Of a stretch of DNA of 64,000 nucleotides, positions 4,761 through 25,252 are shown piece after piece. How positions within the stretch are numbered: position 1 is the first letter of the stretch; each line of letters opens with the position of its first letter. The notes beneath the pieces are model-generated. The model was not told where the DNA came from. It saw nothing but the letters and a program-made list of their open reading frames with translations, and searched no databases. A program made the translations under genes and the position numbers. Source of the stretch: Thermoanaerobaculia bacterium (lineage in GTDB: Bacteria > Acidobacteriota > Thermoanaerobaculia > Multivoradales > SZUA-115); NCBI GenBank assembly GCA_036274895.1, contig DASUEU010000058.1, positions 84,885-148,884 on the forward strand, in the 5' to 3' direction.

Positions 4761-4774
4761 ACTCTGCGCCCGCC

Positions 4775-5987
4775 GATGAGCACCCAGGCCCCGTCCTCTC
4801 CCGGCCGCGCCGCCCTCTTCGCGGTCTACGCCACGGTCTTCCTCGACCTGCTCGGCTTCGGGATCCTGCTGCCGGCGCTACCCTACTATGCCGAGCGCCT
4901 GGGGGCCTCGGGCACCGGCGTGGCGTTGCTTTTCGCGTCCTACTCTTTGGCCCAACTGGTCGGGGCCAACCTGCTCGGCCGGCTCTCCGACGCCCGCGGC
5001 CGGCGCCCCGTGCTGCTGCTCTCGCTGGTGGGCTCCGCCCTGGGGATGACCGCCTCGGGCCTCGCCCAGAGCCTGCTCACCCTGTGCGCCGCACGGGCCC
5101 TGGCCGGCCTCTCAGGGGGCAGCATCGGCACCGCCCAGGCGTTCATCGCCGACACCACCACGCCGGAGCAGCGCCCGGCTCGCATGGGTGGGCTCGGGGC
5201 CTCGATCGGCCTCGGCTTCGTCGCCGGCCCGGCCCTGGGCGCCCTGCTGCTCGGCCGCGGCCTGGGCTTCGCCGGCGCCGCCTTCACCGCCGCCGCTCTG
5301 GCCCTGGCCAACCTGGTGTTCACCTTCCTGGTGCTGCCGGAGTCGCGCCGGCCCGGCGCGGCGCCCACCGCCTCGCGGGGCCTGGCCGCCTGGCGCACGG
5401 CGGTCAGTCGGCCGGTCCTGCGGCCGGTGCTCGCCGCGTCGTTCCTGGTGCTCGCCGCCTTCGTCGCCATGGAGACCACCTTCGCCCTCTGGACCGAGGA
5501 GCGCTTCGGCTTCCGGGAGCGGGAGTTCGGCCTGGTGCTGACCCTCGCCGGAGCGGTGATGGTGATCGTCCAGGGCGCTCTGGTGGGCCCGATCAGCCGG
5601 CGTTTCGGGGTGCGCCGGGTGGCGGCTGCCGGCGGCGCCCTCCTCGGCCTGGCCCTGGCGGCGATGCCCTGGGCCCCGGGCAAGGCCTGGCTGCTGGCCA
5701 ACGTGGTCGTGATGGCCCTGGGCCTGGGCCTGGCCCTGCCGAGCCTCTCCTCCCTGCTCTCCCAGCTCTCGCCCGCCGAGGACCAGGGCACCGTGCTCGG
5801 CGCGGGCCAGTCCCTCCAGGCCCTGGCCCGGGCCACCGGCCCGCTCGCCGCCGGCCTCCTCTTCGACCTCGGCCCCGCCCTGCCCTACCTCTGGGCGGGG
5901 GGGTTGGGGCTGCTGGCGGCTTGGGTGGTGGGGAGAGGGAGCTACAGCACCGTGCCGGTCAACACCGCCCGGGCCACGGAGAAGTAG
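4775..5987 (+). CDS. MFS transporter (Tet/drug:H+ antiporter-like)
   Basis: Starts MSTQAPSS... at ATG 4775, inside the longer ORF 4305..5987. It has 12 predicted TM segments and the MFS signature GRLSDARGRRPVLL. Confidence 0.8.
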
Positions 5988-7279
5988 AACAGCAGCCCGA
6001 AGACGTCGACCAGGGTGGCGACGAAGGGGGCGGAGGCGCTGGCGGGGTCGAGGCCGAGGCGTTTGAGGAGGAGGGGCAGCATGGCCCCGGAGAGGGTGCC
6101 CCACAGCACCACGCCCAGCAGGGCTGTGCCGATGGTCAGGGCGTAGAGCAGGTAGTGCTCGCCGTAGGTGCCGAAGGCCTGCTCCCAGATCACGATGCGG
6201 CCGATGCCGATCGCCGCCAGGATCAGCCCCAGGGCCAGGCCCGAGGCCAGCTCGCGGCGGGCGATGCGGTACCAGTCGCGCAGCCTCACTTCGCCCAGGG
6301 CCATGGCCCGGATCACCAGGGTCGAGGCCTGGGAGCCGGAGTTGCCACCGGAGGAGATGATGAGGGGCACGAAGAGGGCGAGCACCACGGCCTTGCTGAT
6401 CTCGTCCGCGAAGCGGCCCATCGCCGAGGCGGTGATCAGCTCGCCGCAGAAGAGCAGGGCGAGCCAGCCGGCCCGCTTCTTGACCATCTCGCCGAGGCCG
6501 GTCTCGAGGTAGGGAGCGTCGAGGGCCTCGAGGCCGCCCAGCTTGTGGATGTCCTCGGTGGCTTCCTCCTCGACCACGTCGACGATGTCGTCGACGGTGA
6601 CGATGCCCTTCATCCGCCCCTCGGCATCCACCACCGGGATCGCCGTCAGGTCCTCCTCGGCGAAGACCCGGGCCACCTGCTCCTGGTCCATGTCCTCGGG
6701 GACGGTGACCACCTCGCGCTGCATCACCTCGTGCACCGGCCGGGCACCCGGAGCGGCGAAGAGGTCCCGGAAGGAGACCACGCCCAGCAGCCTCTGCTCC
6801 GAGTCGAGGACGTAGACGTAGTAGAGGGTCTCGAGCCGCCCTCGCGCCTGGAGCCGCAGGTAGCTGATCGCCTCGTCCACGGACATGTCGGGCCGCAGGC
6901 GGGCGAAGCGGGGGCTCATCAGGCCGCCGGCTTCGTCCTCGGCGTACGCCAGAAGAGCGCGCACGTCGCGCCGGGTGGGCTCGTCCAGCAAGCTCAGCAG
7001 CTCGGGACGCTCCTCGGGCTCGAGCTCCTGGAGCACGTCGGCGGCGTCGTCCGGGGCCAGCAGGCGCAGCCAGACCCGCTGCTCGGTCGGGCGAAGCTCG
7101 ACGAGGAGGGCTGCCTGGCCGTGGGAGGGGAGGCTCTGGAAGAAGTCGTCCGCCTCGGTCGGATCGAGCAGACGGAAGCCCTCGACCTGCTCGGGAGGCG
7201 CCAAGGCCGGCCAGGCCTCGTGCAGCTCCTCGGCGGTCAGCCGGGTGGTGGGGACGAGCGTTTCCACGGCGCGGAGCAT
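5942..7279 (-). CDS. mgtE: Magnesium transporter MgtE
   Basis: 445 aa with an MgtE N-domain, tandem CBS domains and the C-terminal MgtE TM domain (..ISSGGNSGSQ..). Confidence 0.85.
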   Translation of the reverse strand: MLRAVETLVPTTRLTAEELHEAWPALAPPEQVEGFRLLDPTEADDFFQSLPSHGQAALLVELRPTEQRVWLRLLAPDDAADVLQELEPEERPELLSLLDEPTRRDVRALLAYAEDEAGGLMSPRFARLRPDMSVDEAISYLRLQARGRLETLYYVYVLDSEQRLLGVVSFRDLFAAPGARPVHEVMQREVVTVPEDMDQEQVARVFAEEDLTAIPVVDAEGRMKGIVTVDDIVDVVEEEATEDIHKLGGLEALDAPYLETGLGEMVKKRAGWLALLFCGELITASAMGRFADEISKAVVLALFVPLIISSGGNSGSQASTLVIRAMALGEVRLRDWYRIARRELASGLALGLILAAIGIGRIVIWEQAFGTYGEHYLLYALTIGTALLGVVLWGTLSGAMLPLLLKRLGLDPASASAPFVATLVDVFGLLFYFSVARAVLTGTVL

Positions 7280-7344
7280 AACCGCAACGGGCCGCCTCCG
7301 AGCCCGTCGTGACGGCGTCGTTACGGCCTCGCCGTAGCCGGAGT

Positions 7345-8484
7345 CTAGCGGCCGAAACGGCGCTGGCGCTGGTGGTAGGAGCGCAGGGCCCGCAGCAGGT
7401 CGATCTTGCGGAAGGCGGGCCAGTTGGTGTCGCAGAAGTAGAACTCGGAGTAGGCGCTCTGCCAGAGCAGGAAGCCCGAGAGGCGCACCTCACCGCTGGT
7501 GCGCAGGATGAGGTCCGGCTCGGGCAGCCCCGAGGTGTAGAGGTGGGGCTCGATGGTCCGGTCGTCGAAGCCGGCGATCACCTCGTCGAGCTCCTTGCCC
7601 TGGCGCTTCGACTCGGTGAGGAAGCTGCGGAAGGCGTCGGTGATCTCTTCGCGCCCGCCGTAGGCCATGGCGATGTTGAGCTGGAAGCGCTCGTAAGCGG
7701 CGGTGACGCTCTCTGCCCTCTCGATCGCCGCCTGCAAGCTGTCCGGCAGCAGCTCGAGCTTGCCCAGGTAGCGCACCCGCACCTCGTTGGTGTGCACGTC
7801 GGAGTGTCCGGCGAGGCGCAGGGTCTCGCGCTCGAAGAGCTGGAGCAGGGCCTCCACCTCGGAGGTGTCCCGGGAGAGGTTGTCGAGGGAGAAGCTCCAC
7901 ACCGTGACCACCGGGATGTCGAGCTCGTAGCACCAGGAGAGGACTTCCCGCAGCTTCTCGGCCCCCCGCTCGTGGCCGAAATGCGAGCCGCCCAGCCCGC
8001 TCTCCCGGGCGAAGCGACGGTTGCCGTCCATGATGATGCCGATGTGCCGGGGCAGCCGCCAGGTCGGGACCTCCTCCATCAGGCGCTTCTCGTAGAGGAG
8101 GTAGAAGGGCCGCTTGATGAAGCCCTTGAGCGTCTGCCAGACGAAGGAGAGGCGGCGCGGGCGTGCTTTGGGCGCGGGAATCGAGAGAGGTGCGGTCAGG
8201 GGTTCACCCTCGGGTGCCGAAATGCCGTGGAGGCATGATGTTACACCAAACGGCGAGCTGGGGCGGGGCGCCCCCCTCCGGCTGGCTTCCGTCCGTGGCC
8301 GAGCCTCGCCGCTTCGCTCTCGCCCGGGTGGTCCAGCGGTGCTGGAAGAGGAACTTCCTGCTCGCGCTCGAAGCCGCCGGGGCGAGCGAGGATGAGGCGG
8401 GCGGGATCGCGGCGGCGATGAGCCTGGGGGAGGCGGGTTGGAGAAGGCTGGGGGGTGGTGAGGTGAGTGCTCACTAACGTTCAT
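7345..8484 (-). CDS. cis-isoprenyl (Z-prenyl) diphosphate synthase, UppS family, Rv1086-like; true start uncertain
   Basis: The C-terminal 263 aa align along their full length with the UppS fold: HIGIIMDGNRRFA, YGGREEI, LILRTSGEVRLSGFLLWQSAYSEFYF, RRFGR. From memory it is closest to Mycobacterium Rv1086 short-chain Z-FPP synthase (PFYLLYEKRL.. matches PLYRLYELRL..). The 120-aa Pro/Arg-rich N-terminal stretch of the ORF looks non-coding, but no ATG/GTG/TTG exists in frame near the homology boundary. Confidence 0.75.
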   Translation of the reverse strand: MNVSEHSPHHPPAFSNPPPPGSSPPRSRPPHPRSPRRLRARAGSSSSSTAGPPGRERSGEARPRTEASRRGAPRPSSPFGVTSCLHGISAPEGEPLTAPLSIPAPKARPRRLSFVWQTLKGFIKRPFYLLYEKRLMEEVPTWRLPRHIGIIMDGNRRFARESGLGGSHFGHERGAEKLREVLSWCYELDIPVVTVWSFSLDNLSRDTSEVEALLQLFERETLRLAGHSDVHTNEVRVRYLGKLELLPDSLQAAIERAESVTAAYERFQLNIAMAYGGREEITDAFRSFLTESKRQGKELDEVIAGFDDRTIEPHLYTSGLPEPDLILRTSGEVRLSGFLLWQSAYSEFYFCDTNWPAFRKIDLLRALRSYHQRQRRFGR

Positions 8485-8602
8485 CGCCTGAGCGGCGCCG
8501 CCAAAGGCGGTGACCGCCTCCAGGCGCCGGGTTCTGCGTGGAGGTCACGCGCTCCAGGCTCTTCGCGTAGTCGATTCCTGGTGCGAAGCCCGTCGAAGCC
8601 CG

Positions 8603-9154
8603 TCATCGCGCCGCTCTTGCGATCATACGCAGAAACTGCTGAAAGACGAAGTACAGGGCAACCCCTGTGAGTACCCATAGCACCAGCGTAGCGAGCATGA
8701 TCGATGCGCTTCGGTAGTGGAGCCAGGTCCCGGCGCCGATCAGAGGAGCCTGCAGGAACAGAGCGCGCAGTATCCTGACCCTGCCTCTCCGGCGAAGTAG
8801 GCGATCGCGCTGTCCCTCACATCCAAGGAGCCTCTCTTCGGCCGAGTGGAAGAGAGCTCCGACCGCAGGAGCAGCGCTGCGCTGGTGGAAGCGGGTCCAG
8901 TTCCGCCCGTTGTACCATTTCAGGTAAGGAAGTGACGCCAGATAGCACAGATGATCGACCACGGTTCCGAGTGAGTAGCAAGCAACGAGAAGGACGAAGA
9001 GCAAGGATGGTCCCAGGTTGTCCGGGAGTCGAGTTATCCAGTCGATGAGAGACTCCGGGGAGCTGCCGCTCACGGCCAACCCAAAGAGGCTGATCCAGAG
9101 GGCGGCGAGGCAGCCAACGACGAGGTACTCCGCGATGAGTGTCGTCCAACTCAT
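8603..9154 (-). CDS. hypothetical 4-TM membrane protein (low-GC island gene C)
   Basis: 183 aa with four hydrophobic helices and ordinary codon/amino-acid composition in a ~52% GC segment. I recognise no family. Confidence 0.5.
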   Translation of the reverse strand: MSWTTLIAEYLVVGCLAALWISLFGLAVSGSSPESLIDWITRLPDNLGPSLLFVLLVACYSLGTVVDHLCYLASLPYLKWYNGRNWTRFHQRSAAPAVGALFHSAEERLLGCEGQRDRLLRRRGRVRILRALFLQAPLIGAGTWLHYRSASIMLATLVLWVLTGVALYFVFQQFLRMIARAAR

Positions 9155-9274
9155 GACTCACCTATGGTTCGCTACTAACCGCCCTTTGCCGTCGCCGAAC
9201 GTTCATCGCCTCACCGCCGCGCACCAGCGCGGGCAGTGCAGGCAGTGGTTGGGCAACTCTAGATGACGTCAGGT

Positions 9275-10405
9275 TCACTGACTTGCCCCAATCTCTTTGA
9301 GTTTAGAAGCCATATCAAGAACCTCTTGCACCGCAGTCTTAGGTGCCTCGCCGAACGGTTGAGGCGAGACTGAGACTGTCTTTACGACCTCCCTTCTCAG
9401 AAGAGCACTTGCCTCTTGGTCAGAAGCAATGAGTTGCAGCGACTCAGCCTTCTGAGCAAGGACAGCAGCCTGGTGGCTGTGGTATTTGTAGACAGAAAAG
9501 AAAATCTGAACAAGCAGGAGAGTAAGCACAGCGATGGTAGCGCGGATCGCAATATCAGGCCAGCTTGTTTGTGACTGGGTCTGAATCGTCTTTAACAACT
9601 GCTCATAGCTCTGGCTATGGCTATAGTTTTGACGAATCTCGCTGAGGAGTTCCGGTGCGCGCTTCTGGAAGAACTCTCGGGCTTCGCTTGAGACAGCTTC
9701 CTTCTCAAGACGCTCCATTACGGTGGCCAGTCGAAGCACCTTGTACCTCTCGGCCTCTACGTCACGGAGGCGCTCGACATGACTACTCATCCAGAGTCCT
9801 ACAGAGGCGCCCCCGCCGATGAAGACAAGAACAAACATCGCGGCCATACTGATTCGGCTCGTTCGCTCGGCTGCAAGGCTTCTGGCGTAAAGCCTTCGAG
9901 TTACCAGACCTAGAGCCTTCTGCGATGTCTCTGGCTCTAGTGCAGATGGCAGAGACACAGAGGCATCGCTATCCTCAAGGCCTTGGTCCCGGTGCGAGTT
10001 TGGAGCCGACTGAATGTCAATGCCTGACGAGTGTTCAGCACGGGCTACCCGAGAGAGGAGCACCGAGAGTACTCCGATTAGAGATATTCGCACCCCCGCG
10101 GTAATCGCTTCGGCGACGCCGGCCGGCACACTCAATATGTATTGTGAGAATGAAGCTACAATTAATTCCTGGGCAAAAAAAAGGAGAAAAAAAGAATGAG
10201 GCAATACTTCCCATGGCCCAGATAGTTTACCAAGGCGGACAACATGGCGTGCTATCTGCGCCATCAGAAGTGCGGAGACAAGCCCCAAGAGAAACCACGC
10301 GTCGATACGATTGCCAGATAAGAAGCGGACATAACTAGTCGTAACCCCGACGACAGCTGCCAAGGCGACAAGCCAGGTGCTCGAGCTGGGTTGCACGATT
10401 GCCAT
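9275..10405 (-). CDS. hypothetical multi-pass membrane protein with central coiled-coil (low-GC island gene B)
   Basis: Likely starts MAIVQPSS at ATG 10405, preceded by a GAAGGGGGAAG RBS. The listed ORF extends to 10540 through an inverted repeat. It has four N-terminal TM helices, a fifth TM, an Arg/Glu-rich coiled-coil, a further TM and a C-terminal tail. Confidence 0.55.
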   Translation of the reverse strand: MAIVQPSSSTWLVALAAVVGVTTSYVRFLSGNRIDAWFLLGLVSALLMAQIARHVVRLGKLSGPWEVLPHSFFLLFFAQELIVASFSQYILSVPAGVAEAITAGVRISLIGVLSVLLSRVARAEHSSGIDIQSAPNSHRDQGLEDSDASVSLPSALEPETSQKALGLVTRRLYARSLAAERTSRISMAAMFVLVFIGGGASVGLWMSSHVERLRDVEAERYKVLRLATVMERLEKEAVSSEAREFFQKRAPELLSEIRQNYSHSQSYEQLLKTIQTQSQTSWPDIAIRATIAVLTLLLVQIFFSVYKYHSHQAAVLAQKAESLQLIASDQEASALLRREVVKTVSVSPQPFGEAPKTAVQEVLDMASKLKEIGASQ

Positions 10406-10472
10406 CTTCCCCCTTCCAATATCTAGCCTCTCAGAGTGTTGAGCTCTGTCGCCCAACGTTTGAGCTGAGGCG

Positions 10473-10559
10473 CCCGCAACGGCAGGCCGCCTTGGCCGGG
10501 CAGCCGAGAATGGCCGAAGGCTGAGCGGCTGCCCGGCCAAGGCGGCCTGCCGTTGCGGG
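10473..10559. repeat. perfect 34-bp inverted repeat (19-nt loop)
   Basis: cccgcaacggcaggccgccttggccgggcagccg at 10473-10506 is exactly the reverse complement of 10526-10559. Confidence 0.9.
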
Positions 10560-10591
10560 TCGCATCGAGCGAAGGGTTAGGCATCGCCGGG

Positions 10592-11596
10592 CTACGCGAG
10601 CTTGGACTGAAGAAAGCGAACGAGTGCTATCGCGCCGTCGATGCCTTGCTCGACCTGTGGGGCCTCGACGTCCTTCTGCGCGATGTTTCCGTGAACCAGA
10701 TCGTTGCGAATGCCACGTAAGCGATCAACTGCATCGATCGCAGCTTGAACCCTGCGGAGGTCGGTCTTGCCGAGAGAGAGCGGAAGGACGATGTTTAGGA
10801 GGTTGTTGAACGTAAGTTCATCACGAAGGCGCTTGATCTTGTTGTTGCTGAAGCCGCTCTCCTTGAGGGCTTTGAGCCCGTATGCTCGAAGCAGCGTCTC
10901 GGAGATGATAGACGCCTCGATGGCGGCTGCACGTAGCTCCCGCCAGCCAGCTTTCCCTCGGATTCTGTAGAGCTCAAGAAGCTCGCCTTCAGGAAAGGTC
11001 CCATTGTCAGCGGCGCGCTGCATGTCGCGCCAGCGTACGGGAGTGACTAGTTGCGCGGCGGTGTACAGCGGGTTGCGGCCGCGTGGTTTGGTTAGCTTCG
11101 GCTGAAATGGGGTGAACGTCGTTCCGTCAACGCTCCACTCAACTTGACCGCGAGACAGTCTGCCGCCGGTAAAGAAGTTGGTCATCGACTCGGGACCCAT
11201 CCGCATCAGGTAGCGCACCTTCCCAGCTGAGTACAAGAGGGCCTCGAACTTGGTGTGCGCTTCTACGTAGGCATCGTAAATGGCTTCGGCGGCAGTAGCA
11301 CTAGCCGTGCCTTTGCGCGAGAGACTTTGGACGAGATCCGGGGGCGCTGGGGCGTAGTGAAGTTCGATTCGACCACTTGGGAAGAGGATCACGTCTCGCT
11401 TCCAAGGATGCTTCTCTTCCTCCAAGTAGACGAGCACCTTGGCGCGCGTCAGCTGCATGGACAGCGGGGTATCGTGATCCTGCTTCCGCCACTTTGATGC
11501 GCCAAAGCTCGGGAAGTCGATCGGCCTGCGGATGATGAGCTGCGACATACAGTGGATGCGATGCCTAACCAGTAAGCGTCTTTCCGAAGTCCGCAC
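10592..11596 (-). CDS. hypothetical protein with C-terminal HEPN-like R-x4-H motif (low-GC island gene A)
   Basis: The ~110-aa alpha-helical C-terminus contains ..DRLRGIRNDLVHGN.. (RNxxxH) at 10691-10708. The alternative ATG start at 11548 would give 318 aa. The N-terminal 200 aa match no family I recognise. Confidence 0.5.
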   Translation of the reverse strand: MRTSERRLLVRHRIHCMSQLIIRRPIDFPSFGASKWRKQDHDTPLSMQLTRAKVLVYLEEEKHPWKRDVILFPSGRIELHYAPAPPDLVQSLSRKGTASATAAEAIYDAYVEAHTKFEALLYSAGKVRYLMRMGPESMTNFFTGGRLSRGQVEWSVDGTTFTPFQPKLTKPRGRNPLYTAAQLVTPVRWRDMQRAADNGTFPEGELLELYRIRGKAGWRELRAAAIEASIISETLLRAYGLKALKESGFSNNKIKRLRDELTFNNLLNIVLPLSLGKTDLRRVQAAIDAVDRLRGIRNDLVHGNIAQKDVEAPQVEQGIDGAIALVRFLQSKLA

Positions 11597-16228: not shown

Positions 16229-17383
16229 GTGATCGCAGACTCGAGACGGAAGGACGAATCGTTCCTGGACCAGTTGGTGCGCCAGCGCTGGCTGACTCCC
16301 TGGCAAGCTGAGGTTCTCGCCGTGGCGCAGGTGGACTCGGTGGAGACGTTGTGGGCCGTGCTGGTGACCTTCCCATCCCTCGGACGGATCCCGGGATTCG
16401 ACCTCCCGGGCCTGACCAACCGTCTGGCCAGAGGCTTCGGAGCTGAGATCGGCATCCTCGCCGAATCGCCCGGTGCCCCCGGCGTTGCCCTACCAGCCTT
16501 CGCCTTCGGGTGCGAGTACCCAGGGCAAGACGAGCCGGCTGCTCCCGGCTGGGAGGTTCCACTGCCCGCTCACGGGGGGCTCAGGAGCCTGGCCCTCCAA
16601 TCTACCGGGGCGGAATCTCTGCAAGATGCCATCGACGTCCGCTGCGGGCCGTGGCCGGTGCGGGACCAGGGTGAGCGCGGCGCCTGCATCGCCTTTGCGA
16701 CGGTCGCCTGCCGAGAGCAGCTGGAATGCCGGCGGGCTCTCGCGCTACCAGACCTCTCCGAGCAGTACTTCTACTGGGCTCTGAAGGCCCGGAGCGCTGA
16801 TCCGTGGCCGGAGAGCGAAGGCAGTCTCCTGCGGTTCGCGCAGCGAGCCCTCGCATCGGAGGGTGTGTGCACCGAGCGGCTGTGGCCCTACAACCCGGCG
16901 AGGGTCCCGGGCAACGTCCCTCAGGCCGGTGTCGGTGGCCCCACACCCGCTGCCCGCGCAGATGCACCGCTTTATGCCGTCGCTTCAAGGGCCTTCTGCG
17001 GCGGGACGTCCGTCGGCAATGCCACCCGGCTCTACGGCTGGCTGAAGGATCGGCAGCGCGCCGTCGCCATCTCGCTCCCGGTCTTCTCGAACCCGCGCAA
17101 GCCGAGATCCAACAACTGGGGAAGCCTGGCCGGATGGCGACACGGGCGCGTCCTCGACCCTCCCCCAACAGCCACATCCATCGGAGGGCACACCGTCTGC
17201 GTCACCGGCTTCCGCCCCGATCGCCGCGAACCGCTGGGCGGCTACTTTGTGATCCGCAACAGCTGGGGTCCTCGCTGGGGAAAGCGCCTGCCAAACCCCG
17301 AGCACGCCGGCCCAGAGCCCGGCTATGGGCAGGTCTCGGCGACCTACGTGGAGCGCTTCCTGTGGGAGATGCTGCAGCTGTGA
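16229..17383 (+). CDS. papain-like cysteine peptidase (C1 family) with N-terminal extension
   Basis: Catalytic signatures are present: Q..GERGACIAFA (Gln/Cys), GGHTVCVTGF (His) and IRNSWGPRWG (Asn/Trp). Confidence 0.7.
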   Translation: MIADSRRKDESFLDQLVRQRWLTPWQAEVLAVAQVDSVETLWAVLVTFPSLGRIPGFDLPGLTNRLARGFGAEIGILAESPGAPGVALPAFAFGCEYPGQDEPAAPGWEVPLPAHGGLRSLALQSTGAESLQDAIDVRCGPWPVRDQGERGACIAFATVACREQLECRRALALPDLSEQYFYWALKARSADPWPESEGSLLRFAQRALASEGVCTERLWPYNPARVPGNVPQAGVGGPTPAARADAPLYAVASRAFCGGTSVGNATRLYGWLKDRQRAVAISLPVFSNPRKPRSNNWGSLAGWRHGRVLDPPPTATSIGGHTVCVTGFRPDRREPLGGYFVIRNSWGPRWGKRLPNPEHAGPEPGYGQVSATYVERFLWEMLQL

Positions 17384-17425
17384 GCAGTGGCTGTCACCGG
17401 TCCCGGAGAGTTATACTGCCCTCCC

Positions 17426-17776
17426 ATGAACGTCCGGTATCTGCGCTCAGCAGTCGGCCTGGCTCTCGACCGCGGTGACTTTGGCGTGGCAGTAGCGGGT
17501 GAGGTTCTCGAACTGCCGCGGGAGCTCGCGCTGGCAGCTGAGCGCCTGGGTGTGTACACCCCCGAGGATCTTCTGGCCATGATCGGCACTTTCCCCGAAG
17601 CCATCGCGCATGAGCTCGGTTGGCAGCCCGAGGAGGTGGAGACGGCATTTTCCGGGCTCCGTGCCACCCTCCGGGGGCATCTGCCGCAGGACGTTCTCGA
17701 GCCTGAAGAGCATGAGACGCCGCCGACCGGAGCCCTCTGTCCCTGGGAGGTCCCTGCCCTCCCCGCCCGCCGCTGA
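17426..17776 (+). CDS. small hypothetical protein sharing a motif with the N-terminus of the upstream protease
   Basis: MNVRYLRS.. starts at 17426, inside ORF 17387..17776. It contains TPEDLLAMIGTFPEAIAHEL, which resembles SVETLWAVLVTFPSLGRI in the protease N-terminus. Confidence 0.4.
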   Translation: MNVRYLRSAVGLALDRGDFGVAVAGEVLELPRELALAAERLGVYTPEDLLAMIGTFPEAIAHELGWQPEEVETAFSGLRATLRGHLPQDVLEPEEHETPPTGALCPWEVPALPARR

Positions 17777-17840: not shown

Positions 17841-19397
17841 ATGAAGACCCTCAAGAGCTACGTTTGCGGCCAATGGTTCGAAGCCTCCTCGGGCTTCAGC
17901 TCCCTCTTCGACCCCGCCACCGAGCAGGAGATCGCCCGCGCTTCGACCGCCGGTGTCGACTTCGGCGCCGTTCTCGCCCACGCCCGGGAGCAGGGCCTGC
18001 CGGCCCTCCAGGCGATGACCTTCCGCGAGCGGGCCGAGTTGGTCAAGGGCCTCTCCAAGGTGATCCGCGACCACCGCGACGAGCTGCTCGACCTCTCCCG
18101 CCAGAACACCGGCACCACCATCCCGGACGGCGCCTTCGACGTCGACGGCGCCTCGGGCACTCTGGCCTTCTACGCCGCCCTGGGCAAGGGCCTGGGGGAC
18201 TCGCCCTTCGTCATCGACGGCGAGAGCACCCAGCAGTCCCGCTCGGGCGAGGTGGTGGGCCAGCACGTCTTCGTGCCCCGCCGGGGCGTGGCCGTGCACG
18301 TCAACGCCTTCAACTTCCCGCTCTGGGGCTTCGCCGAGAAGGCGGCTTGCAGCCTGCTCGCCGGCATGCCGGTCGTCACCAAGCCGGCGACCGCCACGGC
18401 CCTTGTCACCGAGCGCTGCATCGAGCTGATCGTCGCGGCGGGCATCCTTCCAACCGGTGCCCTCCAGCTGCTGACCGGCAACACCGGCGACCTGCTCGAC
18501 CGCCTCGGCCCCTTCGACGTGCTCGCCTTCACCGGCTCGGCGGACACCGCTCGCGGCTTGAAGGCCCGGGGGCGCATCCTCGAGGCCTGCACCCGGGTCA
18601 ACGTCGAGGCGGACAGCCTCAACGCTGCCGTGCTCGGTCCCGACGTGGCTCCCGGCTCGGCGACCTTCGACCTCTTCGTGCGCGACGTGGTGCGTGAGAT
18701 GACCCAGAAGACGGGGCAGAAGTGCACGGCGGTGCGCCGCATCCTGGCGCCGGCGGTGCAGCTGGGCGCGGTGCGGGAAGCCCTGGCCGAAAGCCTGGGC
18801 CGGGTCGTCACCGGCAACGCCGCCGACCCCGCCGTGACCATGGGTCCGCTCGCAACCGCTTCCCAGCTCGCCGACAGCCTCTCCGGGCTCGCCGAGCTCG
18901 CGGCCGAGGCCAGGATGGTGGTGGGGCAGGCGGCCCGCGCGGACGGCGTGGGCAGCCCGGCGGGCAAGGGCTGGTTCCTGGCGCCGGTGCTGCTCGAGGC
19001 CGCGGACGCCCGCAGCTCCCCGGCAGTGCACCGCCGCGAGGTCTTCGCGCCGGTCGCCACCCTGCTACCCTACGACGGCTCTGCCGCCGAGGCCGCGGCC
19101 CTGGTGACCCTGGCCGAAGGCACACTGGTGACCTCGGTCTACACCGACGACGGCGGCTGGTTGGCCCCCTTCGCAGCCGTGGCCGGCGCCGCCACCGGCC
19201 GGATCTACATCGGCTGCGAGGCGGCGGCCGCCGAGGCGCCGGGCTCGGGCGCGGCCTTCCCCCAGAACCTCCACGGCGGCCCGGGACGGGCCGGCGGCGG
19301 CGAGGAGCTGGGCGGACTGCGCGGCCTGGCCCTCTACCTCCAGCGCGTGGCCCTGCAAGGCGGTAAGGGCTTGATCTCGGCCCTGACGGCGGCCTAG
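17841..19397 (+). CDS. paaN: PaaN/PaaZ-type aldehyde dehydrogenase (oxepin-CoA ring-opening ALDH domain only)
   Basis: Starts MKTLKSYVCGQW. The blocks GVAVHVNAFNFPLWGFAEK, MPVVTKPATATAL and HGGPGRAGGGEELGGLR align closely with the E. coli PaaZ N-domain. There is no MaoC hydratase domain. Confidence 0.8.
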   Translation: MKTLKSYVCGQWFEASSGFSSLFDPATEQEIARASTAGVDFGAVLAHAREQGLPALQAMTFRERAELVKGLSKVIRDHRDELLDLSRQNTGTTIPDGAFDVDGASGTLAFYAALGKGLGDSPFVIDGESTQQSRSGEVVGQHVFVPRRGVAVHVNAFNFPLWGFAEKAACSLLAGMPVVTKPATATALVTERCIELIVAAGILPTGALQLLTGNTGDLLDRLGPFDVLAFTGSADTARGLKARGRILEACTRVNVEADSLNAAVLGPDVAPGSATFDLFVRDVVREMTQKTGQKCTAVRRILAPAVQLGAVREALAESLGRVVTGNAADPAVTMGPLATASQLADSLSGLAELAAEARMVVGQAARADGVGSPAGKGWFLAPVLLEAADARSSPAVHRREVFAPVATLLPYDGSAAEAAALVTLAEGTLVTSVYTDDGGWLAPFAAVAGAATGRIYIGCEAAAAEAPGSGAAFPQNLHGGPGRAGGGEELGGLRGLALYLQRVALQGGKGLISALTAA

Positions 19398-19562
19398 GGA
19401 CGCGGTCACCGCGCCCCATCGCCCGCAGGGCCGACACGCTGTCCGCCCCTCCCGCCGCCCCCTTGGACGTGGCGCCGTGGCGCTTCGTATGCTATGTCGT
19501 CATTTATGGCACATCGGCATGCGTAGGTCCTGCCGGGACCGCGCACCCCCAAGGAGGAACCC

Positions 19563-21581
19563 ATGCACCGCCCTTCCCGTGCTCCACGCCTCGGTTCCCT
19601 GATCTTCCTCGCCTCCCTCGCCGTTTCCGTCCTCCTCCCACCCCTCCCCGCCCTCGGCCAGCTCGTCCCCTCCGGCCTCAACCGCCGGGCCTCCGAGGGC
19701 ACCGTCTCCGAGCTGGCCTTCGCCGCCGCCGCCGATGAGGACAGCTCCCTCTGGCTGGTCTGGCAGGAGGCCACGGGCACGGTATCCGGCGGGCCGGTGC
19801 GGGTGCGCCATCTGCGCTCCTCGGGCCTTCCCTTCGGCCCGTCACAGGTGGTGGCACAGCCGGGCGAGCCCGTGGAGGTCGCCGCCGCCCTCGATCCCGA
19901 AGCGGGGTTCCTCACGCTCTGGACCGAGCGCACCAGCAACAACAACGTCAACCTCCGGGCCCTGCGCCAAGGAACCTCGGCCTCCTACGTGGTCAACGGC
20001 AGCGGCAACCGCCTGCGCACCAGGCCCTCGATCTCTTGCCGCCGCGACCTCGGTTGCGTCGCCGTCTGGCTCGAGTACAACGCGACCGCGAGTCCCTTCG
20101 CCGGGCACATCTGGGCGCGGCGCCTCGACGCCTTCGCTCAGCCGGTGGGTCAGGCCTTCCGCGTCACCGACACTCCCGAACCGTTCTTCGCCGCGCCCAG
20201 CGTCGACCTCGCCTCTGATGGCCGCTCGGTGGTCTCCTGGCCCGCCGGTCGGCTCGTCCCCGGTGGCTATCCGGGCACCTTCGTGGTCATCCAGAGCCCT
20301 CGGGCACGCACCTTCTCCGCCTCCGGCACGCCGCTCGGGCCGGCGGCCAGCCTGGACGACCTCGAGACCTTCGGCGACGTCGCCGTCGACGCGCGCTGGG
20401 ACGAGGACGGCCAGATCGTGGCGGTGTGGAACCAACCGTTCAGCCACTCCAACCGGGAGTTCGGCGTCTTTGCCCGGGCGTTGGACGCCTTCGCGGGCTT
20501 CCGCTCCAACGTCGTCCGCCTGGCCCGCGGCGTGGCCTATGCGCCCAGCCTGCGCTTCCTGCCCCTCGCCGGGCGCTTCGTGGCCGGCTGGCAAGACGCC
20601 CCCGCCAGCAACAACCTCGCCGGCCTGGCCCAAGCCTTGACCCTGCTGATCGACGCCAACGCCAGCCCCGCGGGCACTCCCATCCCCGCCACCCAGTCCG
20701 CCGAGGCGCTGCCGTTTCAGCTCCGACTCGCTGCCGGCGAGCGGGACACGGCCTGGGCGGTGTGGCCGGAGCGGGGCTCCGGCGGCACGCCCGGTCCTCT
20801 CGTCGTGCAGCGGGTCTTCGCTTCGGGCTCCCCCTGCATCGGCTTCCCGCCGATCCCCTGCGCCGTGATGCGGGGGGACGAGCGCTTCGTCGCCTGGATC
20901 AACTACCGCGACCCCCGCGGCGTGCAGTTCCTCGCGCCGCCCGTACCCTTGACCGCCGACACCACCGGCTTCACCTTCACCTCGGCCGAGGTGCCGGAGA
21001 TCGTCGCCAAGGTCCTCGACGGCCGGGACTTGAACGAGCGCTTCTGGGTCTTCTACGCCTCGCTGACCGACCAGGAGTTCTCGCTGGTGATCCTCGATCG
21101 GGCCACCGACAACACTCGCGCCTACTACAACCGCCAGGGTCGGCTGGCCAGCTCCGCCGATACCGGCGCCTTCGCCGATCCACCCGGCGGAGCTCCCGCC
21201 CCGCCGGCCCTCGAGGGCCTGGTCGGGCCCCGAGCCCTGGCCACTGCGTGCCCGGGCACCGCCACCTCGCTCTGCCTGCTCGACAGTCAGTATTTCGTCG
21301 AAGTGGACTGGGAAGACTTCCAAGGTGCCACCGGCCAGGGCCAGACGGTGCCCGCGACCTCGATCGGCGGCTACTTCACCTTCTTCGATCCGGCCAACAT
21401 CGAGCTGGCGGTCAAGCTGATCGACGGCCGGGCCGTCAACGGCCACTTCTGGGTCTTCTATGCCTCGCTGACCAGCGTGCCGTTCACCCTGCGGATCAAG
21501 GACGCGGGAGGCAACGTGGTGGCCGAGTACACCAATCCGTCTGGCAACATGGCGAGCGTGGCCGACGTTGAGGCCTTCTGA
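19563..21581 (+). CDS. secreted repeat protein, tandem paralog 1, with duplicated conserved C-terminal ~100-aa domain
   Basis: Signal peptide and an AAGGAGGA RBS. An internal and a terminal copy of the domain ..FTF..P.N.E.AVK(L/V)(I/L)DG..(V/L)N..FW(V/T)FY.SLT...F.L.I.D.. are present. The C-terminal 56 aa are identical to the downstream paralog. Confidence 0.7.
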   Translation: MHRPSRAPRLGSLIFLASLAVSVLLPPLPALGQLVPSGLNRRASEGTVSELAFAAAADEDSSLWLVWQEATGTVSGGPVRVRHLRSSGLPFGPSQVVAQPGEPVEVAAALDPEAGFLTLWTERTSNNNVNLRALRQGTSASYVVNGSGNRLRTRPSISCRRDLGCVAVWLEYNATASPFAGHIWARRLDAFAQPVGQAFRVTDTPEPFFAAPSVDLASDGRSVVSWPAGRLVPGGYPGTFVVIQSPRARTFSASGTPLGPAASLDDLETFGDVAVDARWDEDGQIVAVWNQPFSHSNREFGVFARALDAFAGFRSNVVRLARGVAYAPSLRFLPLAGRFVAGWQDAPASNNLAGLAQALTLLIDANASPAGTPIPATQSAEALPFQLRLAAGERDTAWAVWPERGSGGTPGPLVVQRVFASGSPCIGFPPIPCAVMRGDERFVAWINYRDPRGVQFLAPPVPLTADTTGFTFTSAEVPEIVAKVLDGRDLNERFWVFYASLTDQEFSLVILDRATDNTRAYYNRQGRLASSADTGAFADPPGGAPAPPALEGLVGPRALATACPGTATSLCLLDSQYFVEVDWEDFQGATGQGQTVPATSIGGYFTFFDPANIELAVKLIDGRAVNGHFWVFYASLTSVPFTLRIKDAGGNVVAEYTNPSGNMASVADVEAF

Positions 21582-21605
21582 ACCTCCCGTCTTGGAGACC
21601 CTGCC

Positions 21606-23594
21606 ATGAAGCAGCGACAACGCCGACTCGCCGCCTTCACGCTCCGGCTTTTCCTGCTCGTCCTCGGCTCGGCCGGCGTCGTGGCCGCCCAAGAGCTGAT
21701 ACCCATCGGGGTCAACGTCCCGGTTCCGGGGCAAGCCTCCGCGGCCTCGCTCGACGGCGAGGCCGTGCTGTTCGTCGGGCAAGTGCAAGTCCAGGCCTCG
21801 CCACCCCTCCACGAGTTGACGGGCCGCCTGTTCACCGCGGCGGGAGCCCCGGCTGGGGGAGAGGTCGTCCTGGTCTCCGGCCCGGCAGCCTTCAGCCACA
21901 CCCTCGCCACCGCTTCTGACGGCAGCTTCCTGTTGATCTGGGGCGAGAGTACCCCTTTGGGGGGCCTGCTCCACCTCTTCAGCCGATCCTATGGCCCCGG
22001 CCTCGTCCCTCTCGGAGCGGTCCGGGATCTCGGCATCGAGGCGATCGCCGGCCTGCGAGGTGAATCGCCGGCCCTGGCCTGCGGCGCCGACCAGTGCGTG
22101 CTGGCCTGGTGCGGCTTCGCTGGCGGCGTCCTCGAGGCGCGCTACCAGCGCCTCGCCCCGGACGGCACACCCCAGGGAAGCACCCACCTGGCCGGTGTGC
22201 TGCACTCCAGCTTCAATGGACCGGTGTCCGTCGCCCTCGCCGACGACGGCAGCCTGGCCGTGGCCTGGACCGAGGTCACCACGGGTCCTTTCGCCACCAC
22301 CTTCGGCGCGCCCTTCCTGGCTCTCTTCGACCCGGCGGACGACCTGCGCTCGACACAGGCTCTGGAGCCGTCCCGACTGCTCAGCCCAAGGTCCATCGGC
22401 CTGGCCTGGGCTCCGGCCGGTGAGGTCCTGGTGGCCCTCGACGAGAACGTCGGGCACCCCCTCCTGCCGGTCTCCAGGGTCAAGGTGCAGCGTTTCGACG
22501 GCCAAGGCATGCCCCTCGCGCCGGCGACGGTGGTCGACGACGGCAGCGGCTTCGAGCCCGCTCTACTGTGGTCCCCCGACCTCGAGCGCTTCGTGCTCGC
22601 CTGGTGGTCCGCACCTTGCTGCTCCCCCCAGGGTCGGACCGCCGTGGTGACCCGCCTGCTCGACGCCACGGGCACGCCCACGGGCGTACCGCTGGAGGTC
22701 AGCCGCAACGTCAACCGAGAACCCTCCTTCCAGGTCAGCCGGCCGATGCTGGTGGACCTGGGCGGGGGCGAGATCTTCGCCGCTTGGCAAGTGGACGCGG
22801 CTCCGGGCGGCCCCTTCTTCGCCCAGCGGCTTTCGGCGACCTCGCCCTGTCTCGGCTTTCCCCCTACGCCCTGCATCTCCGCCGGACCGGACGACCGCTT
22901 CCTTCTCTTCGTCAACGTTCGCACCCCAGGCGGTGGGCAAATCCTGGCGCCGTCGTCCCGTCTGACGCCGGACAGCGTGGCCTTTACCTTCACCTCTCCC
23001 GACGTCCCCGAGGTCTTCGCCAAGATGATCGACGGCACGGGCTTGAACGACCAGTTCTGGACCTTCTACGGCTCGCTGACCGACCAGGAGTTCTCCCTCG
23101 TGGTGATCGACCGGGCCGCCCGGCTGACGCGGGGGTATCACAACCCGCCGGGACGGCTGGCCAGCTTCGGCGACACCTCGGCCTTCCCGGCCATGGCTCC
23201 GCCGCCGAGCGGGGAGCTGCTGCCGCTCGCCCTCGCGCCACCAGCGGCGGCCGCGGCCCCCTGTCCGCCGGTCGCCGGCCTGCTCTGCCTCCTCGACGGC
23301 CAGTTCTACGTCGAGGTGGAGTGGACCGACTTCCAGGGCGGCAGCGGCGACGGCCAACCGGTTCCGGCCACGGCGAACGGCGGCTACTTCACCTTCTTCT
23401 CGCCGGACAACGTCGAGATCGCGGTCAAGCTCCTCGACGGCCGCGCCGTCAACGGCCATTTCTGGGTCTTCTACGCCTCTCTGACCAGCGTGCCGTTCAC
23501 CCTGCGGATCAAGGATGCGGGAGGCAACGTCGTCGCCGAGTACACCAACCCCTCCGGCAACATGGCGAGCGTCGCTGATGTCGAGGCGTTCTGA
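21606..23594 (+). CDS. secreted repeat protein, tandem paralog 2
   Basis: Signal peptide. It has the same two-copy domain architecture as paralog 1. The last 170 nt are ~88% identical to paralog 1, and the differences are synonymous. Confidence 0.7.
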   Translation: MKQRQRRLAAFTLRLFLLVLGSAGVVAAQELIPIGVNVPVPGQASAASLDGEAVLFVGQVQVQASPPLHELTGRLFTAAGAPAGGEVVLVSGPAAFSHTLATASDGSFLLIWGESTPLGGLLHLFSRSYGPGLVPLGAVRDLGIEAIAGLRGESPALACGADQCVLAWCGFAGGVLEARYQRLAPDGTPQGSTHLAGVLHSSFNGPVSVALADDGSLAVAWTEVTTGPFATTFGAPFLALFDPADDLRSTQALEPSRLLSPRSIGLAWAPAGEVLVALDENVGHPLLPVSRVKVQRFDGQGMPLAPATVVDDGSGFEPALLWSPDLERFVLAWWSAPCCSPQGRTAVVTRLLDATGTPTGVPLEVSRNVNREPSFQVSRPMLVDLGGGEIFAAWQVDAAPGGPFFAQRLSATSPCLGFPPTPCISAGPDDRFLLFVNVRTPGGGQILAPSSRLTPDSVAFTFTSPDVPEVFAKMIDGTGLNDQFWTFYGSLTDQEFSLVVIDRAARLTRGYHNPPGRLASFGDTSAFPAMAPPPSGELLPLALAPPAAAAAPCPPVAGLLCLLDGQFYVEVEWTDFQGGSGDGQPVPATANGGYFTFFSPDNVEIAVKLLDGRAVNGHFWVFYASLTSVPFTLRIKDAGGNVVAEYTNPSGNMASVADVEAF

Positions 23595-23638
23595 CAGAGC
23601 TTCTGCTAGTCTCTGCGTCGAGGATCATCCGTCGCTCC

Positions 23639-25252
23639 ATGTTTCAAGCTTCGCTCGACCTCGGAACGCGAGAGGACTCAGTGGAGGCCGAGACGCAGGT
23701 AGCTGATCTCGAGGGCCGCCAGCTCGCTCTGCTCAACGAGATCGCTCGCATCGCCAGCGAAGATATCGAGCTGCAGCCGATGCTCCAGCGCATCACCGAC
23801 GCCCTCGCCGTGAGGTTCGGCTGGGAGCTGGTGGCGCTCATCCGCATCGACGGCGAACGCAGCGAGTTCGTCTGCGAAGCCTTGACCACCACGCTCGAGA
23901 CCCAGGTGCGACCCGGCTACCGCCGCGCTCTGGGCAGCGGCGTGGTGGGCCGGGTGGCCTCGACCGGTCAAGCGATCCTGCTCGACGACGTGCGCGAGGC
24001 CGACTTCTACGTCGACACCCTGCCCGATTGCCGTTCCGAGCTCTGCCTGCCGATCAAGCACCGTGGCGAGGTGGTGGCCCTGCTCAACCTGGAGAGCCCA
24101 CGCCTCGCCGCTTTCGCCGGCCAGCTCCCCATGCTCGAGACGGTGGCGGAGCAGGTAGCCGGAGTGATCGCCAGCGCCCGCCTCTATGAGGAGGCCCGGC
24201 GCCGCACCCGGGACCTCGAGATCCTCTCCGAGGTCTACCGCCGCGCCCTCGAGGGCTCGGAGCTGACTCGCACCCTCGATGCCATCGCGCGGGAGATCCG
24301 CAACCGCCTGGGCTTCGACTTCGTTTCGATCGGGGTGCTCTCCGAGGACGGCTCCAGCCTCGACCTCCAGGGCTGGGCGGCGAAGACCTCCCTGCCGCTG
24401 GCCCACGGTTATCTGTGGCCCGTGGACAAGGGGATCCTGGGGCGCGCCCTTCGGGACCGCAAGCCCCAGCTCGTCTTCGACGTCGACCGCGACCCCGACT
24501 ACGTGCCCTTCGTGCAGGGCGTCAAGGGCGAGTTGGCGGTGCCCATCCTGTTTCGTGACAACGCAGTGGGCTCGCTCAACGTCGAGACCGCCCGGCCCGA
24601 GGAGCTGTCGCAGGACAACGTGCGGCTGCTGGCGATGCTCGCCGACCAGATCGCCGGCGCCCTCCACCTGGCCCTGGTCAACCGCCGCCTGGAGGAGGCC
24701 AACCAGCGCTTGGTGCAAACCAACGAAGCCCTCTCGCACCTCTCCCTGATGGACGCTTTGACCGGGGTGAGCAACCGGCGCCATTTCGAGCAGGCCCTCG
24801 ACCTCGAGTGGCGGCGGGCCTACCGCGAGCGTCGCCCGCTGGCCCTCGCGATGGTCGACATCGACCACTTCAAGGCCTTCAACGACGCCTACGGACACCA
24901 GGCGGGCGACGACTCCCTGCGCCGGGTCGCTCAGGTGCTGAGCAACACCATCCAGCGCGCCGGCGACCTGGTCTCGCGCTACGGCGGCGAGGAGTTCGCC
25001 GTCATCCTCCCCGGCCTCGATGCCGGGGTGGCCGCCAACCTCTGCGAGCAGCTGCGCGCCCGGGTCGAGCAGCTCGGCATCCCCCACGGCTCGAGCACCA
25101 CCGCCCCGCAGCTGACCATCAGCGCCGGCGTGGCCGGGCTGGTGCCCCAGCCCGGCCAGTCCTCACGCAACCTGGTCGCCAAGGCCGACAACGCCCTCTA
25201 CCTGGCCAAGAGCTATGGCCGCAACCGCGTGGTGAGGGCGCCCGACGACTAG
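23639..25252 (+). CDS. GAF-GAF-GGDEF diguanylate cyclase
   Basis: The C-terminal GGDEF domain contains RYGGEEF and is preceded by two GAF-like regions. Confidence 0.85.
   Translation: MFQASLDLGTREDSVEAETQVADLEGRQLALLNEIARIASEDIELQPMLQRITDALAVRFGWELVALIRIDGERSEFVCEALTTTLETQVRPGYRRALGSGVVGRVASTGQAILLDDVREADFYVDTLPDCRSELCLPIKHRGEVVALLNLESPRLAAFAGQLPMLETVAEQVAGVIASARLYEEARRRTRDLEILSEVYRRALEGSELTRTLDAIAREIRNRLGFDFVSIGVLSEDGSSLDLQGWAAKTSLPLAHGYLWPVDKGILGRALRDRKPQLVFDVDRDPDYVPFVQGVKGELAVPILFRDNAVGSLNVETARPEELSQDNVRLLAMLADQIAGALHLALVNRRLEEANQRLVQTNEALSHLSLMDALTGVSNRRHFEQALDLEWRRAYRERRPLALAMVDIDHFKAFNDAYGHQAGDDSLRRVAQVLSNTIQRAGDLVSRYGGEEFAVILPGLDAGVAANLCEQLRARVEQLGIPHGSSTTAPQLTISAGVAGLVPQPGQSSRNLVAKADNALYLAKSYGRNRVVRAPDD

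Follow-up and report, generated by a model that had tools for sequence, protein, structure and literature searches.

A tandem pair of predicted secreted propeller proteins from Thermoanaerobaculia with an uncurated two-domain cassette and identical C-terminal tails that point to gene conversion and purifying selection

A tandem gene pair, here called A and B, was examined in a stretch of 64,000 nucleotides (the window) of contig DASUEU010000058.1, which belongs to a Thermoanaerobaculia (Acidobacteriota) metagenome-assembled genome (MAG). Gene A occupies positions 19563..21581 and encodes a protein of 672 amino acids (aa) that is a hypothetical protein at NCBI (VF017_16015), while gene B, at 21606..23594, encodes 662 aa and starts 24 nt past the stop codon of A. 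Both genes were taken from the list of open reading frames (ORFs), and all of their features given below are on the forward strand. The two proteins have the same architecture, a signal peptide followed by a predicted β-propeller and two copies, D1 and D2, of a ~112-aa domain. The ORFs and the hidden Markov model (HMM) matches agree with the initial annotation, which had described tandem proteins of these lengths with one internal and one C-terminal domain copy. The proteins are 42% identical over 585 aa and the sequence similarity of A and B ends at the stop codons. The ribosome-binding site of A, AAGGAGG at 19551..19557, was read directly from the sequence 5 nt 5' of the ATG at 19563. B has its own GGAG upstream. 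A search of 19300..23800 turned up no terminator-like site, and neither sigma-70 promoter-like nor intrinsic terminator-like sites were found around the genes. A and B, 24 nt apart, are therefore probably co-transcribed. Sec signal peptides were predicted by eye for both proteins. That of A comprises aa 1–32 (19563..19658) with cleavage between PALG and QLV, and has a basic n-region, a hydrophobic core and small residues at -3/-1; that of B comprises aa 1–28 (21606..21689) with cleavage between VVAA and QEL. The structural model of A has a helix at residues 10–24 followed by a disordered stretch of low predicted local distance difference test (pLDDT) score.

The N-terminal ~380 aa consist of seven Trp-centred repeats of ~50–60 aa each, spanning aa ~40–420 in A (19680..20822) and aa ~35–410 in B (21708..22835). 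The conserved Trp residues of A are at positions 67, 120, 169, 226, 289, 343 and 401, and the two arrays are 24% identical, which bears out the earlier description of the N-terminal ~400 aa as divergent W-rich repeats. A conserved Cys pair, C159 and C165 of A, lies in the third repeat. The repeats are related to arrays of the type FVVVW...QRFD...EFxVN in other secreted proteins. The full-length AlphaFold (AF2) model of A has a mean pLDDT of 72.9, mostly 75–95 at residues 40–420, and ~27 strands. Foldseek matched the propeller model to 6–7-bladed propellers with a probability of 1.0, E-values of 3e-9 to 5e-6 and 8–15% identity; the best match was 3h6j (E 3e-9), and the matched proteins included pseudaminidase, GH93, GH43, PLL/PHL lectins and WD40 proteins. 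The PLL/PHL lectins (5c9o, 6fhy), GH93 (3a71) and pseudaminidase (2w38) resemble the predicted fold at E 3e-9 to 1e-6, but A and B differ from these lectins and glycosidases in that identity is only 8–15%, no Pfam repeat matches and no catalytic residues were identified. The Pfam models BNR and BNR_2 (Asp-box) of sialidase propellers gave no match in A or B, nor did the ELWxxDGT repeat model TIGR04534, which matches other proteins carrying the same two domains at E 1e-135 to 1e-163. The N-terminal region of A and B is predicted to be a generic ~7-bladed β-propeller with no assignable activity.

The propeller is followed by D1 (20829..21173 in A, HMM E 1e-46; 22842..23186 in B, E 8e-43) and by the C-terminal D2 (21246..21578 in A, E 4e-51; 23256..23591 in B, E 3e-51). 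All four copies have 31 invariant columns in common and a conserved Cys pair at the start of each domain. D1 is the divergent copy, and the 35% identity between D1 and D2 within A and within B is unusually low. The AF2 model of D2 of A is all-β with a pLDDT of 88, and the predicted strand order resembles a sequential antiparallel meander. Foldseek found no relative of this model among solved and viral structures, carbohydrate-binding module (CBM) and lectin folds included, and the lectin-like β-sandwich raised previously gained no support. No family of Pfam-A or NCBIfam 20 matched A or B at E <= 1 and no PDB sequence matched the domain; profile-search matches in the PDB were chance hits to antibody light chains (E >= 0.04) and were dismissed. 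PF19410 (DUF5980) matched two other carriers below threshold, within the ELWxxDGT region, and is unrelated to the domain. In the other carriers that were scanned, the reported Pfam and NCBIfam matches fell in cargo regions or below curated cut-offs. Nothing relevant came up in the literature searched on sorting domains of acidobacteria, on the motifs or on the name of the repeat, and the only cluster names were 'hypothetical protein' and 'ELWxxDGT repeat protein'. The domain thus stands as unassigned, as it had first been described.

When 1.84 billion cluster representatives (clusters at 50% identity) were searched exhaustively with the profile, 10,177 of them matched at E <= 1e-3 and 3,437 did so at E <= 1e-30. 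Word-indexed protein searches recovered only 8, 6 and 19 relatives, and the true size was visible by profile search only. These searches establish a real and large domain family that has no curated entry in the libraries covered. Copy number and position were counted in 162 proteins. Exactly two copies were present in 154 of these, mostly with linkers of 24–50 aa, and the last copy ended within 5 aa of the C-terminus in 137, typically in a conserved ...D[TV]xAF motif. In 21 proteins the didomain follows the signal peptide immediately, and no sorting motif was seen at the C-terminus of these proteins; stand-alone proteins made up of a signal peptide and one domain only were also found. Six proteins of ~780–800 aa (P0037, P0039, P0045, P0074, P0102 and P0141) form a subfamily in which the didomain comes straight after the signal peptide and is followed by ~500 unannotated aa with a conserved ...(K/R/F/A)HTP(E/D/Q) C-terminal motif; the two members scanned, P0037 and P0074, had no Pfam or NCBIfam match. 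D1 and D2 are distinct lineages throughout the family, as the nearest neighbour of a copy was of its own position type in 250 of 306 cases, and they keep ~60% identity across carriers with unrelated cargo. The cargo includes ELWxxDGT propellers (a class of ~1,180 aa), Sortilin/BNR, lactonase and Vgb-lyase propellers, LamG, Calx-beta, PKD, BACON, GDSL lipase, M6 and M23 peptidases, PGA_cap and cupredoxin. In P0166 the same FVVVW/QRFD-type propeller array carries three SLH cell-wall anchors in place of the didomain. The didomain is classed here with the accessory cassettes of secreted multidomain proteins.

Genome loci were collected by scanning GTDB species representatives with a narrow peptide pattern, which biases the distribution, and the best 80 loci were all from Acidobacteriota (Thermoanaerobaculia, Holophagales and Ca. 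Multivoraceae), often with several per genome. The lineage specificity suggested in the initial annotation holds only at the scale of the phylum, as seen in this biased scan. Plasmid records contained no match, and 2.9 million viral contigs contained one weak match. The search for genes neighbouring the 80 loci returned mainly antisense shadow ORFs and scattered unrelated genes.

The cassette is tentatively interpreted as a docking or anchoring module for a common lineage-specific partner, a reading given somewhat less than an even chance. It is suggested by the many unrelated cargoes, the tolerance of either end of the protein, the conservation beyond that of the cargo, the occurrence of SLH domains in the same slot and the uniformity of the paralogs within a genome described below. 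A binding, anchoring or sorting role had also been proposed at the outset and is still the best guess at function. SLH domains (PF00395) are comparable as tandemly repeated accessory modules that tether diverse secreted proteins. They are helical, whereas the didomain is predicted to be all-β; there is no sequence relationship and PF00395 gave no match in A or B. Dockerin and CBM modules are likewise promiscuous and position-tolerant, are fused to many catalytic and binding modules and are conserved regardless of cargo, but the didomain is without a sequence or fold match to them, and no cohesin-like scaffold or glycan partner was identified.

A pair of carbohydrate-binding modules that targets a common polysaccharide, either environmental or the cell's own exopolysaccharide, would explain the fusion to typical CBM partners (glycosidase-like propellers, LamG, BACON and PKD), the independence of position and the aromatic-rich motifs FWFF and FWVFY. 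This is nevertheless considered unlikely. Foldseek gave no CBM or lectin similarity and Pfam no CBM match, and the ~60% identity retained across protease, lipase and cupredoxin carriers argues for one self-encoded partner. If the ligand were the cell's own exopolysaccharide, this explanation would overlap the anchoring model.

A secretion or sorting signal at the C-terminus, recognised and possibly cleaved by a machine dedicated to export or attachment and working like the C-terminal domains (CTDs) of the type IX secretion system (T9SS), would be consistent with the position of the last copy in 137 of the 162 proteins and its typical ...D[TV]xAF ending, with the very broad cargo and with the restriction of the family to one phylum in the sample at many copies per genome. 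The T9SS C-terminal domains of Bacteroidota cargo are of type A and type B (background in PMC9143113 and PMC5121618). The cassette resembles such domains in being all-β, in its usual place at the very end of diverse secreted enzymes and adhesins and in its confinement to one phylum with many genes per genome, and ELWxxDGT-repeat proteins are among its carriers. T9SS CTDs are also roughly the size of the ~112-aa domain. Unlike a strictly C-terminal, single-copy sorting domain, the domain is paired in 154 of the 162 proteins, follows the signal peptide in 21 and occurs in single-domain stand-alone forms. No T9SS C-terminal sorting-domain model of Pfam or NCBIfam, nor any other curated sorting-domain model, matched A or B at E <= 1, and no conserved neighbouring gene for such machinery lay within ±4 kb across the 80 loci. 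Acidobacteriota are not known to have a T9SS. A true secretion signal fits the N-terminal and stand-alone forms poorly and was rated slightly below the carbohydrate-binding explanation.

The last 52 aa, at the C-terminal end of D2, are identical in the two proteins (codons 621–672 of A, 21423..21578; codons 611–662 of B, 23436..23591), and residue -53 is Ile in A and Leu in B, so that the run is shorter than the 56 aa first reported. The 156 nt of the tail contain 15 differences between A and B, all at synonymous third positions. The last 170 nt, counted by eye on the alignment, contain 17 differences, one of them nonsynonymous, in place of the ~20 third-position differences of the initial annotation; the presence of synonymous differences in the tail is upheld. 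Synonymous (pS) and nonsynonymous (pN) differences per site were obtained from Nei-Gojobori counts. For A against B, pS was 0.39 (15/38.2) and pN 0 (0/117.8) in the tail, compared with pS 0.42 and pN 0.22 in the first 60 codons of D2, pS 0.42–0.44 and pN 0.26 in D1, and saturated values of ~0.5 for both in the propeller. The 95% upper bound of omega in the tail is 0.065; at the omega of the adjacent half-domain, ~24 nonsynonymous differences would be expected and the probability of observing none is ~4e-11. Purifying selection on the A/B tail is very strong. In five other diverged tandem pairs (L014, L034, L035, L040 and L064) the last 52 aa are 69–88% identical and never 100%, and in tandem ELWxxDGT-type pairs the tail is usually the best-conserved part (69–88% identity) with pS saturated. 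A finer mosaic within the tail, a near-identical central patch at codons 636–651 between flanks with saturated synonymous sites, was considered; by a rough estimate ~0.3 difference-free runs of that length are expected by chance, and the mosaic is not claimed.

The history of the tail was examined by comparison with related genomes. A syntenic sister genome, L001 (GCA_044869955.1), contains both genes in the order A2, which is 83% identical to A, then B2, and a more distant genome, L002, contains a single copy, S, in the slot between the genes for aldehyde dehydrogenase and a GAF-GGDEF protein. Informative nucleotide sites were classed as orthologous where A=A2 and B=B2, and as concerted where A=B and A2=B2. 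Orthologous and concerted sites numbered 287 and 12 in the propeller, 59 and 1 in D1, and 23 and 0 in the first 60 codons of D2, and this relationship was reversed in the last 52 codons with 1 and 10 (369:13 upstream against 1:10 in the tail, Fisher p = 6e-13). Neighbour-joining bootstrap trees with three outgroups gave (A,A2) and (B,B2) at 100% each upstream of the tail. In the tail they gave (A2,B2) at 99.9% and (A,B) at 75%, with orthologous groupings at <= 0.1% and the four tails as one clade at 97%. The tails are identical at 52/52 residues for A and B, 50/52 for A2 and B2, and 46/52 for both A–A2 and B–B2. Both window proteins have F629, K646, G649, E655 and P659, where A2 and B2 both have Y, T, A, Q and V. 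When polarised by S, F629, G649 (two nucleotide changes) and the synonymous ACC642 are derived in both window paralogs, and V659 and the synonymous TTG643 are derived in both L001 paralogs. On its 5' side the tract begins somewhere from codon 620 to codon 629. In D1 the outlier is B, with 55–60% identity to A, S, X84 and Y84, which are 70–80% identical to one another, and despite this its tail equals that of A.

The duplication that gave rise to A and B is old, since the propellers are 24% identical and synonymous sites are near saturation. The site patterns and trees show that the last ~52 codons (~156 nt) have been homogenised by gene conversion in both lineages after these had split. In L001 the conversion was recent, as pS between A2 and B2 is 0.08 in the tail compared with 0.45 in D1. 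In the window genome it was older: tail pS is 0.39 both for A against B and for A against A2, and the conversion must therefore have closely followed the split. Between the two genomes there are 7 nonsynonymous tail differences, compared with 0 between A and B, a contrast that fits selection for the paralogs to stay identical to each other and does not prove it. The initial annotation had attributed the identical tail to purifying selection as opposed to recent gene conversion. The selection part of that claim stands, and the exclusion of conversion does not, given that the tails evolve in concert within each genome; conversion is part of the explanation and is merely not very recent in the window genome. 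Concerted evolution of bacterial paralogs by gene conversion is known from tufA/tufB. As there, a delimited tract with a sharp boundary and a discordant phylogeny makes A and B closer to each other than to their orthologs. The A/B tract differs in being only ~156 nt long, in lying at the 3' end of two genes that are very divergent elsewhere, and in combining substantial synonymous divergence in the window pair with no amino-acid change.

Purifying selection acting by itself since the ancient duplication, on 52 residues intolerant of change and with no conversion, would also produce 15 synonymous and 0 nonsynonymous differences and a tail pS of 0.39 as high as that of the flanks, and in other tandem pairs, too, the domain is usually best conserved in its tail. 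The tail does vary, however: A and its 83%-identical ortholog have different residues at 6 of the 52 positions, and other pairs are 69–88% identical. Nor would selection by itself account for lineage-specific states, synonymous ones included, that are common to both paralogs in each genome, for the switch in topology at codon ~621 seen in the Fisher and bootstrap results, or for the tail pS of 0.08 in L001. This explanation is already contradicted by the four-gene comparison and is considered highly improbable. Artefacts of assembly or binning, such as collapsed repeats or chimeric contigs, are conceivable in a MAG. They are hardly credible here because the tails differ at 15 nt and so are not collapsed, both genes and their order recur in the independent assembly L001, and the same phenomenon is seen in an unrelated assembly, L085.

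The L085 contig is from forest soil and carries (1–10780) at least six head-to-tail paralogs of 674–696 aa, 0–18 nt apart, each with a propeller and a didomain. The array shows a 5'-to-3' gradient in pS, from ~0.5 in the propeller through 0.31–0.46 in D1 to 0.15–0.31 in the tail, and its tails are 88–98% identical. Across these comparisons, homogenisation of the 3' end is recurrent without being universal, and tails that are fully identical are unusual. Between the aldehyde dehydrogenase and GGDEF genes, the slot holds one copy in L002 (10001–12058) and two in the window, in L001 and in L084 (1–4065), where the locus is cut upstream and the pair is followed by GGDEF and protein kinase genes. 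The propellers of the slot copies are only 24–33% identical to one another. As slot copy number varies and the propellers have diverged to this extent, both copy number and head sequence turn over quickly at a conserved locus. The propellers evolve fast even between orthologs, with pN 0.108 and pS 0.31 for A against A2 and pN 0.241 and pS 0.51 for B against B2, the B-type genes being ~2x faster than the A-type. A fast-evolving propeller of this kind fits a variable head on a conserved stalk.

Taken as a whole, the explanation favoured here, at slightly better than an even chance, combines a secreted propeller with a didomain docking cassette whose tail was shaped by conversion and purifying selection. 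A and B would be exported by the Sec pathway as a fast-evolving propeller head on a conserved two-domain cassette. The cassette would serve for docking or anchoring at either end of a protein and would keep secreted cargo of many kinds attached to one lineage-specific partner, the candidates for which are an envelope or exopolysaccharide component or a receptor protein. The C-terminal half of D2 would have to stay matched to this partner, which would explain why the same version is present in all paralogs of a genome; conversion homogenised the A and B tails after the split, and purifying selection then removed every amino-acid change. A more specific proposal is that the cassette is the cargo tag of an unrecognised, Acidobacteriota-specific surface display or docking system with a dedicated receptor or envelope glycan, and that the C-terminal half of D2 is the specificity determinant, co-evolving with the partner. 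Such a system would account both for conversion spreading variants to all paralogs and for the lack of later drift, and is put forward as a doubtful but specific possibility.

Several observations weigh against the favoured explanation. The tail pS of the window pair, 0.39, is not below that of the flanks (0.42–0.44), so that the drop in synonymous divergence seen inside the tract in L001 (0.08 compared with 0.45) and in L085 (0.15–0.31 compared with ~0.5) is absent from the window pair. The case for conversion in the window genome rests on ~10 shared sites and a bootstrap value of 75%. At the typical family tail omega of ~0.2, a rough estimate from the pN/pS values of the other tandem pairs gives ~9 nonsynonymous changes expected after conversion, and their complete absence needs an extra, unexplained constraint. 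The L084 tandem pair is without homogenisation, its tails being 69% identical with pS 0.37. With regard to function, the ±4 kb around the 80 loci contained no conserved partner gene, the restriction to one phylum was measured with the narrow peptide pattern, and no structural homolog points to any particular function.

The genes that surround A and B in the window are mutually unrelated. Those upstream encode a Na/sulfate symporter, a MacB/FtsX permease, a C1-peptidase-like ORF and an aldehyde dehydrogenase, and those downstream encode GAF-GGDEF, MHYT and CheX proteins, a response regulator and a histidine kinase. No tRNA or Rfam feature was found within the 64-kb window. The C1 papain-like peptidase ORF (384 aa; PF00112, E 9e-10) and a 129-aa ORF lie at 16229–17776 on the forward strand, between the MacB/FtsX permease and the aldehyde dehydrogenase. 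Since these two flanking genes adjoin in L001, 94 nt apart, the stretch is read as a ~1.6-kb insertion in the window genome or a deletion in L001. A low-GC island (0.61 compared with 0.70–0.77 around it) lies on the reverse strand at 8603–11596, between a uppS-like prenyltransferase and the Na/sulfate symporter. It contains three ORFs (183, 421 and 334 aa), of which the 334-aa one has an RNDLVH (Rx4H) motif at its end and a sub-threshold HEPN_RiboL-PSP match (E 9e-4, 19.6 bits compared with a cut-off of 28.4 bits), and the 183- and 421-aa proteins resemble membrane proteins. Horizontal acquisition of an HEPN-based cassette may account for the island.

Acidobacteriota rank with the most abundant bacteria of soils, and little is understood of the proteins that they secrete. 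Domains of unknown function are common in uncultured phyla, and the family described here is in that sense useful and not startling. More is to be learned from the converted tail with its sharp boundary, which corrects either/or reasoning about selection and conversion: the A/B tail is a clean example of short-tract conversion and purifying selection together giving protein identity alongside synonymous divergence, a pattern that taken alone is easily misread as selection only. The didomain family itself, with over 10,000 uncurated clusters, tags a wide range of acidobacterial extracellular enzymes and binding proteins, and as no relative was detected by sequence in Pfam, NCBIfam or the PDB, or by Foldseek among solved and viral structures, it is a direct target for Pfam/InterPro curation and structure determination. 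If the cassette is indeed an anchoring or sorting tag, the surface-displayed proteome of the whole phylum could be listed from sequence alone.

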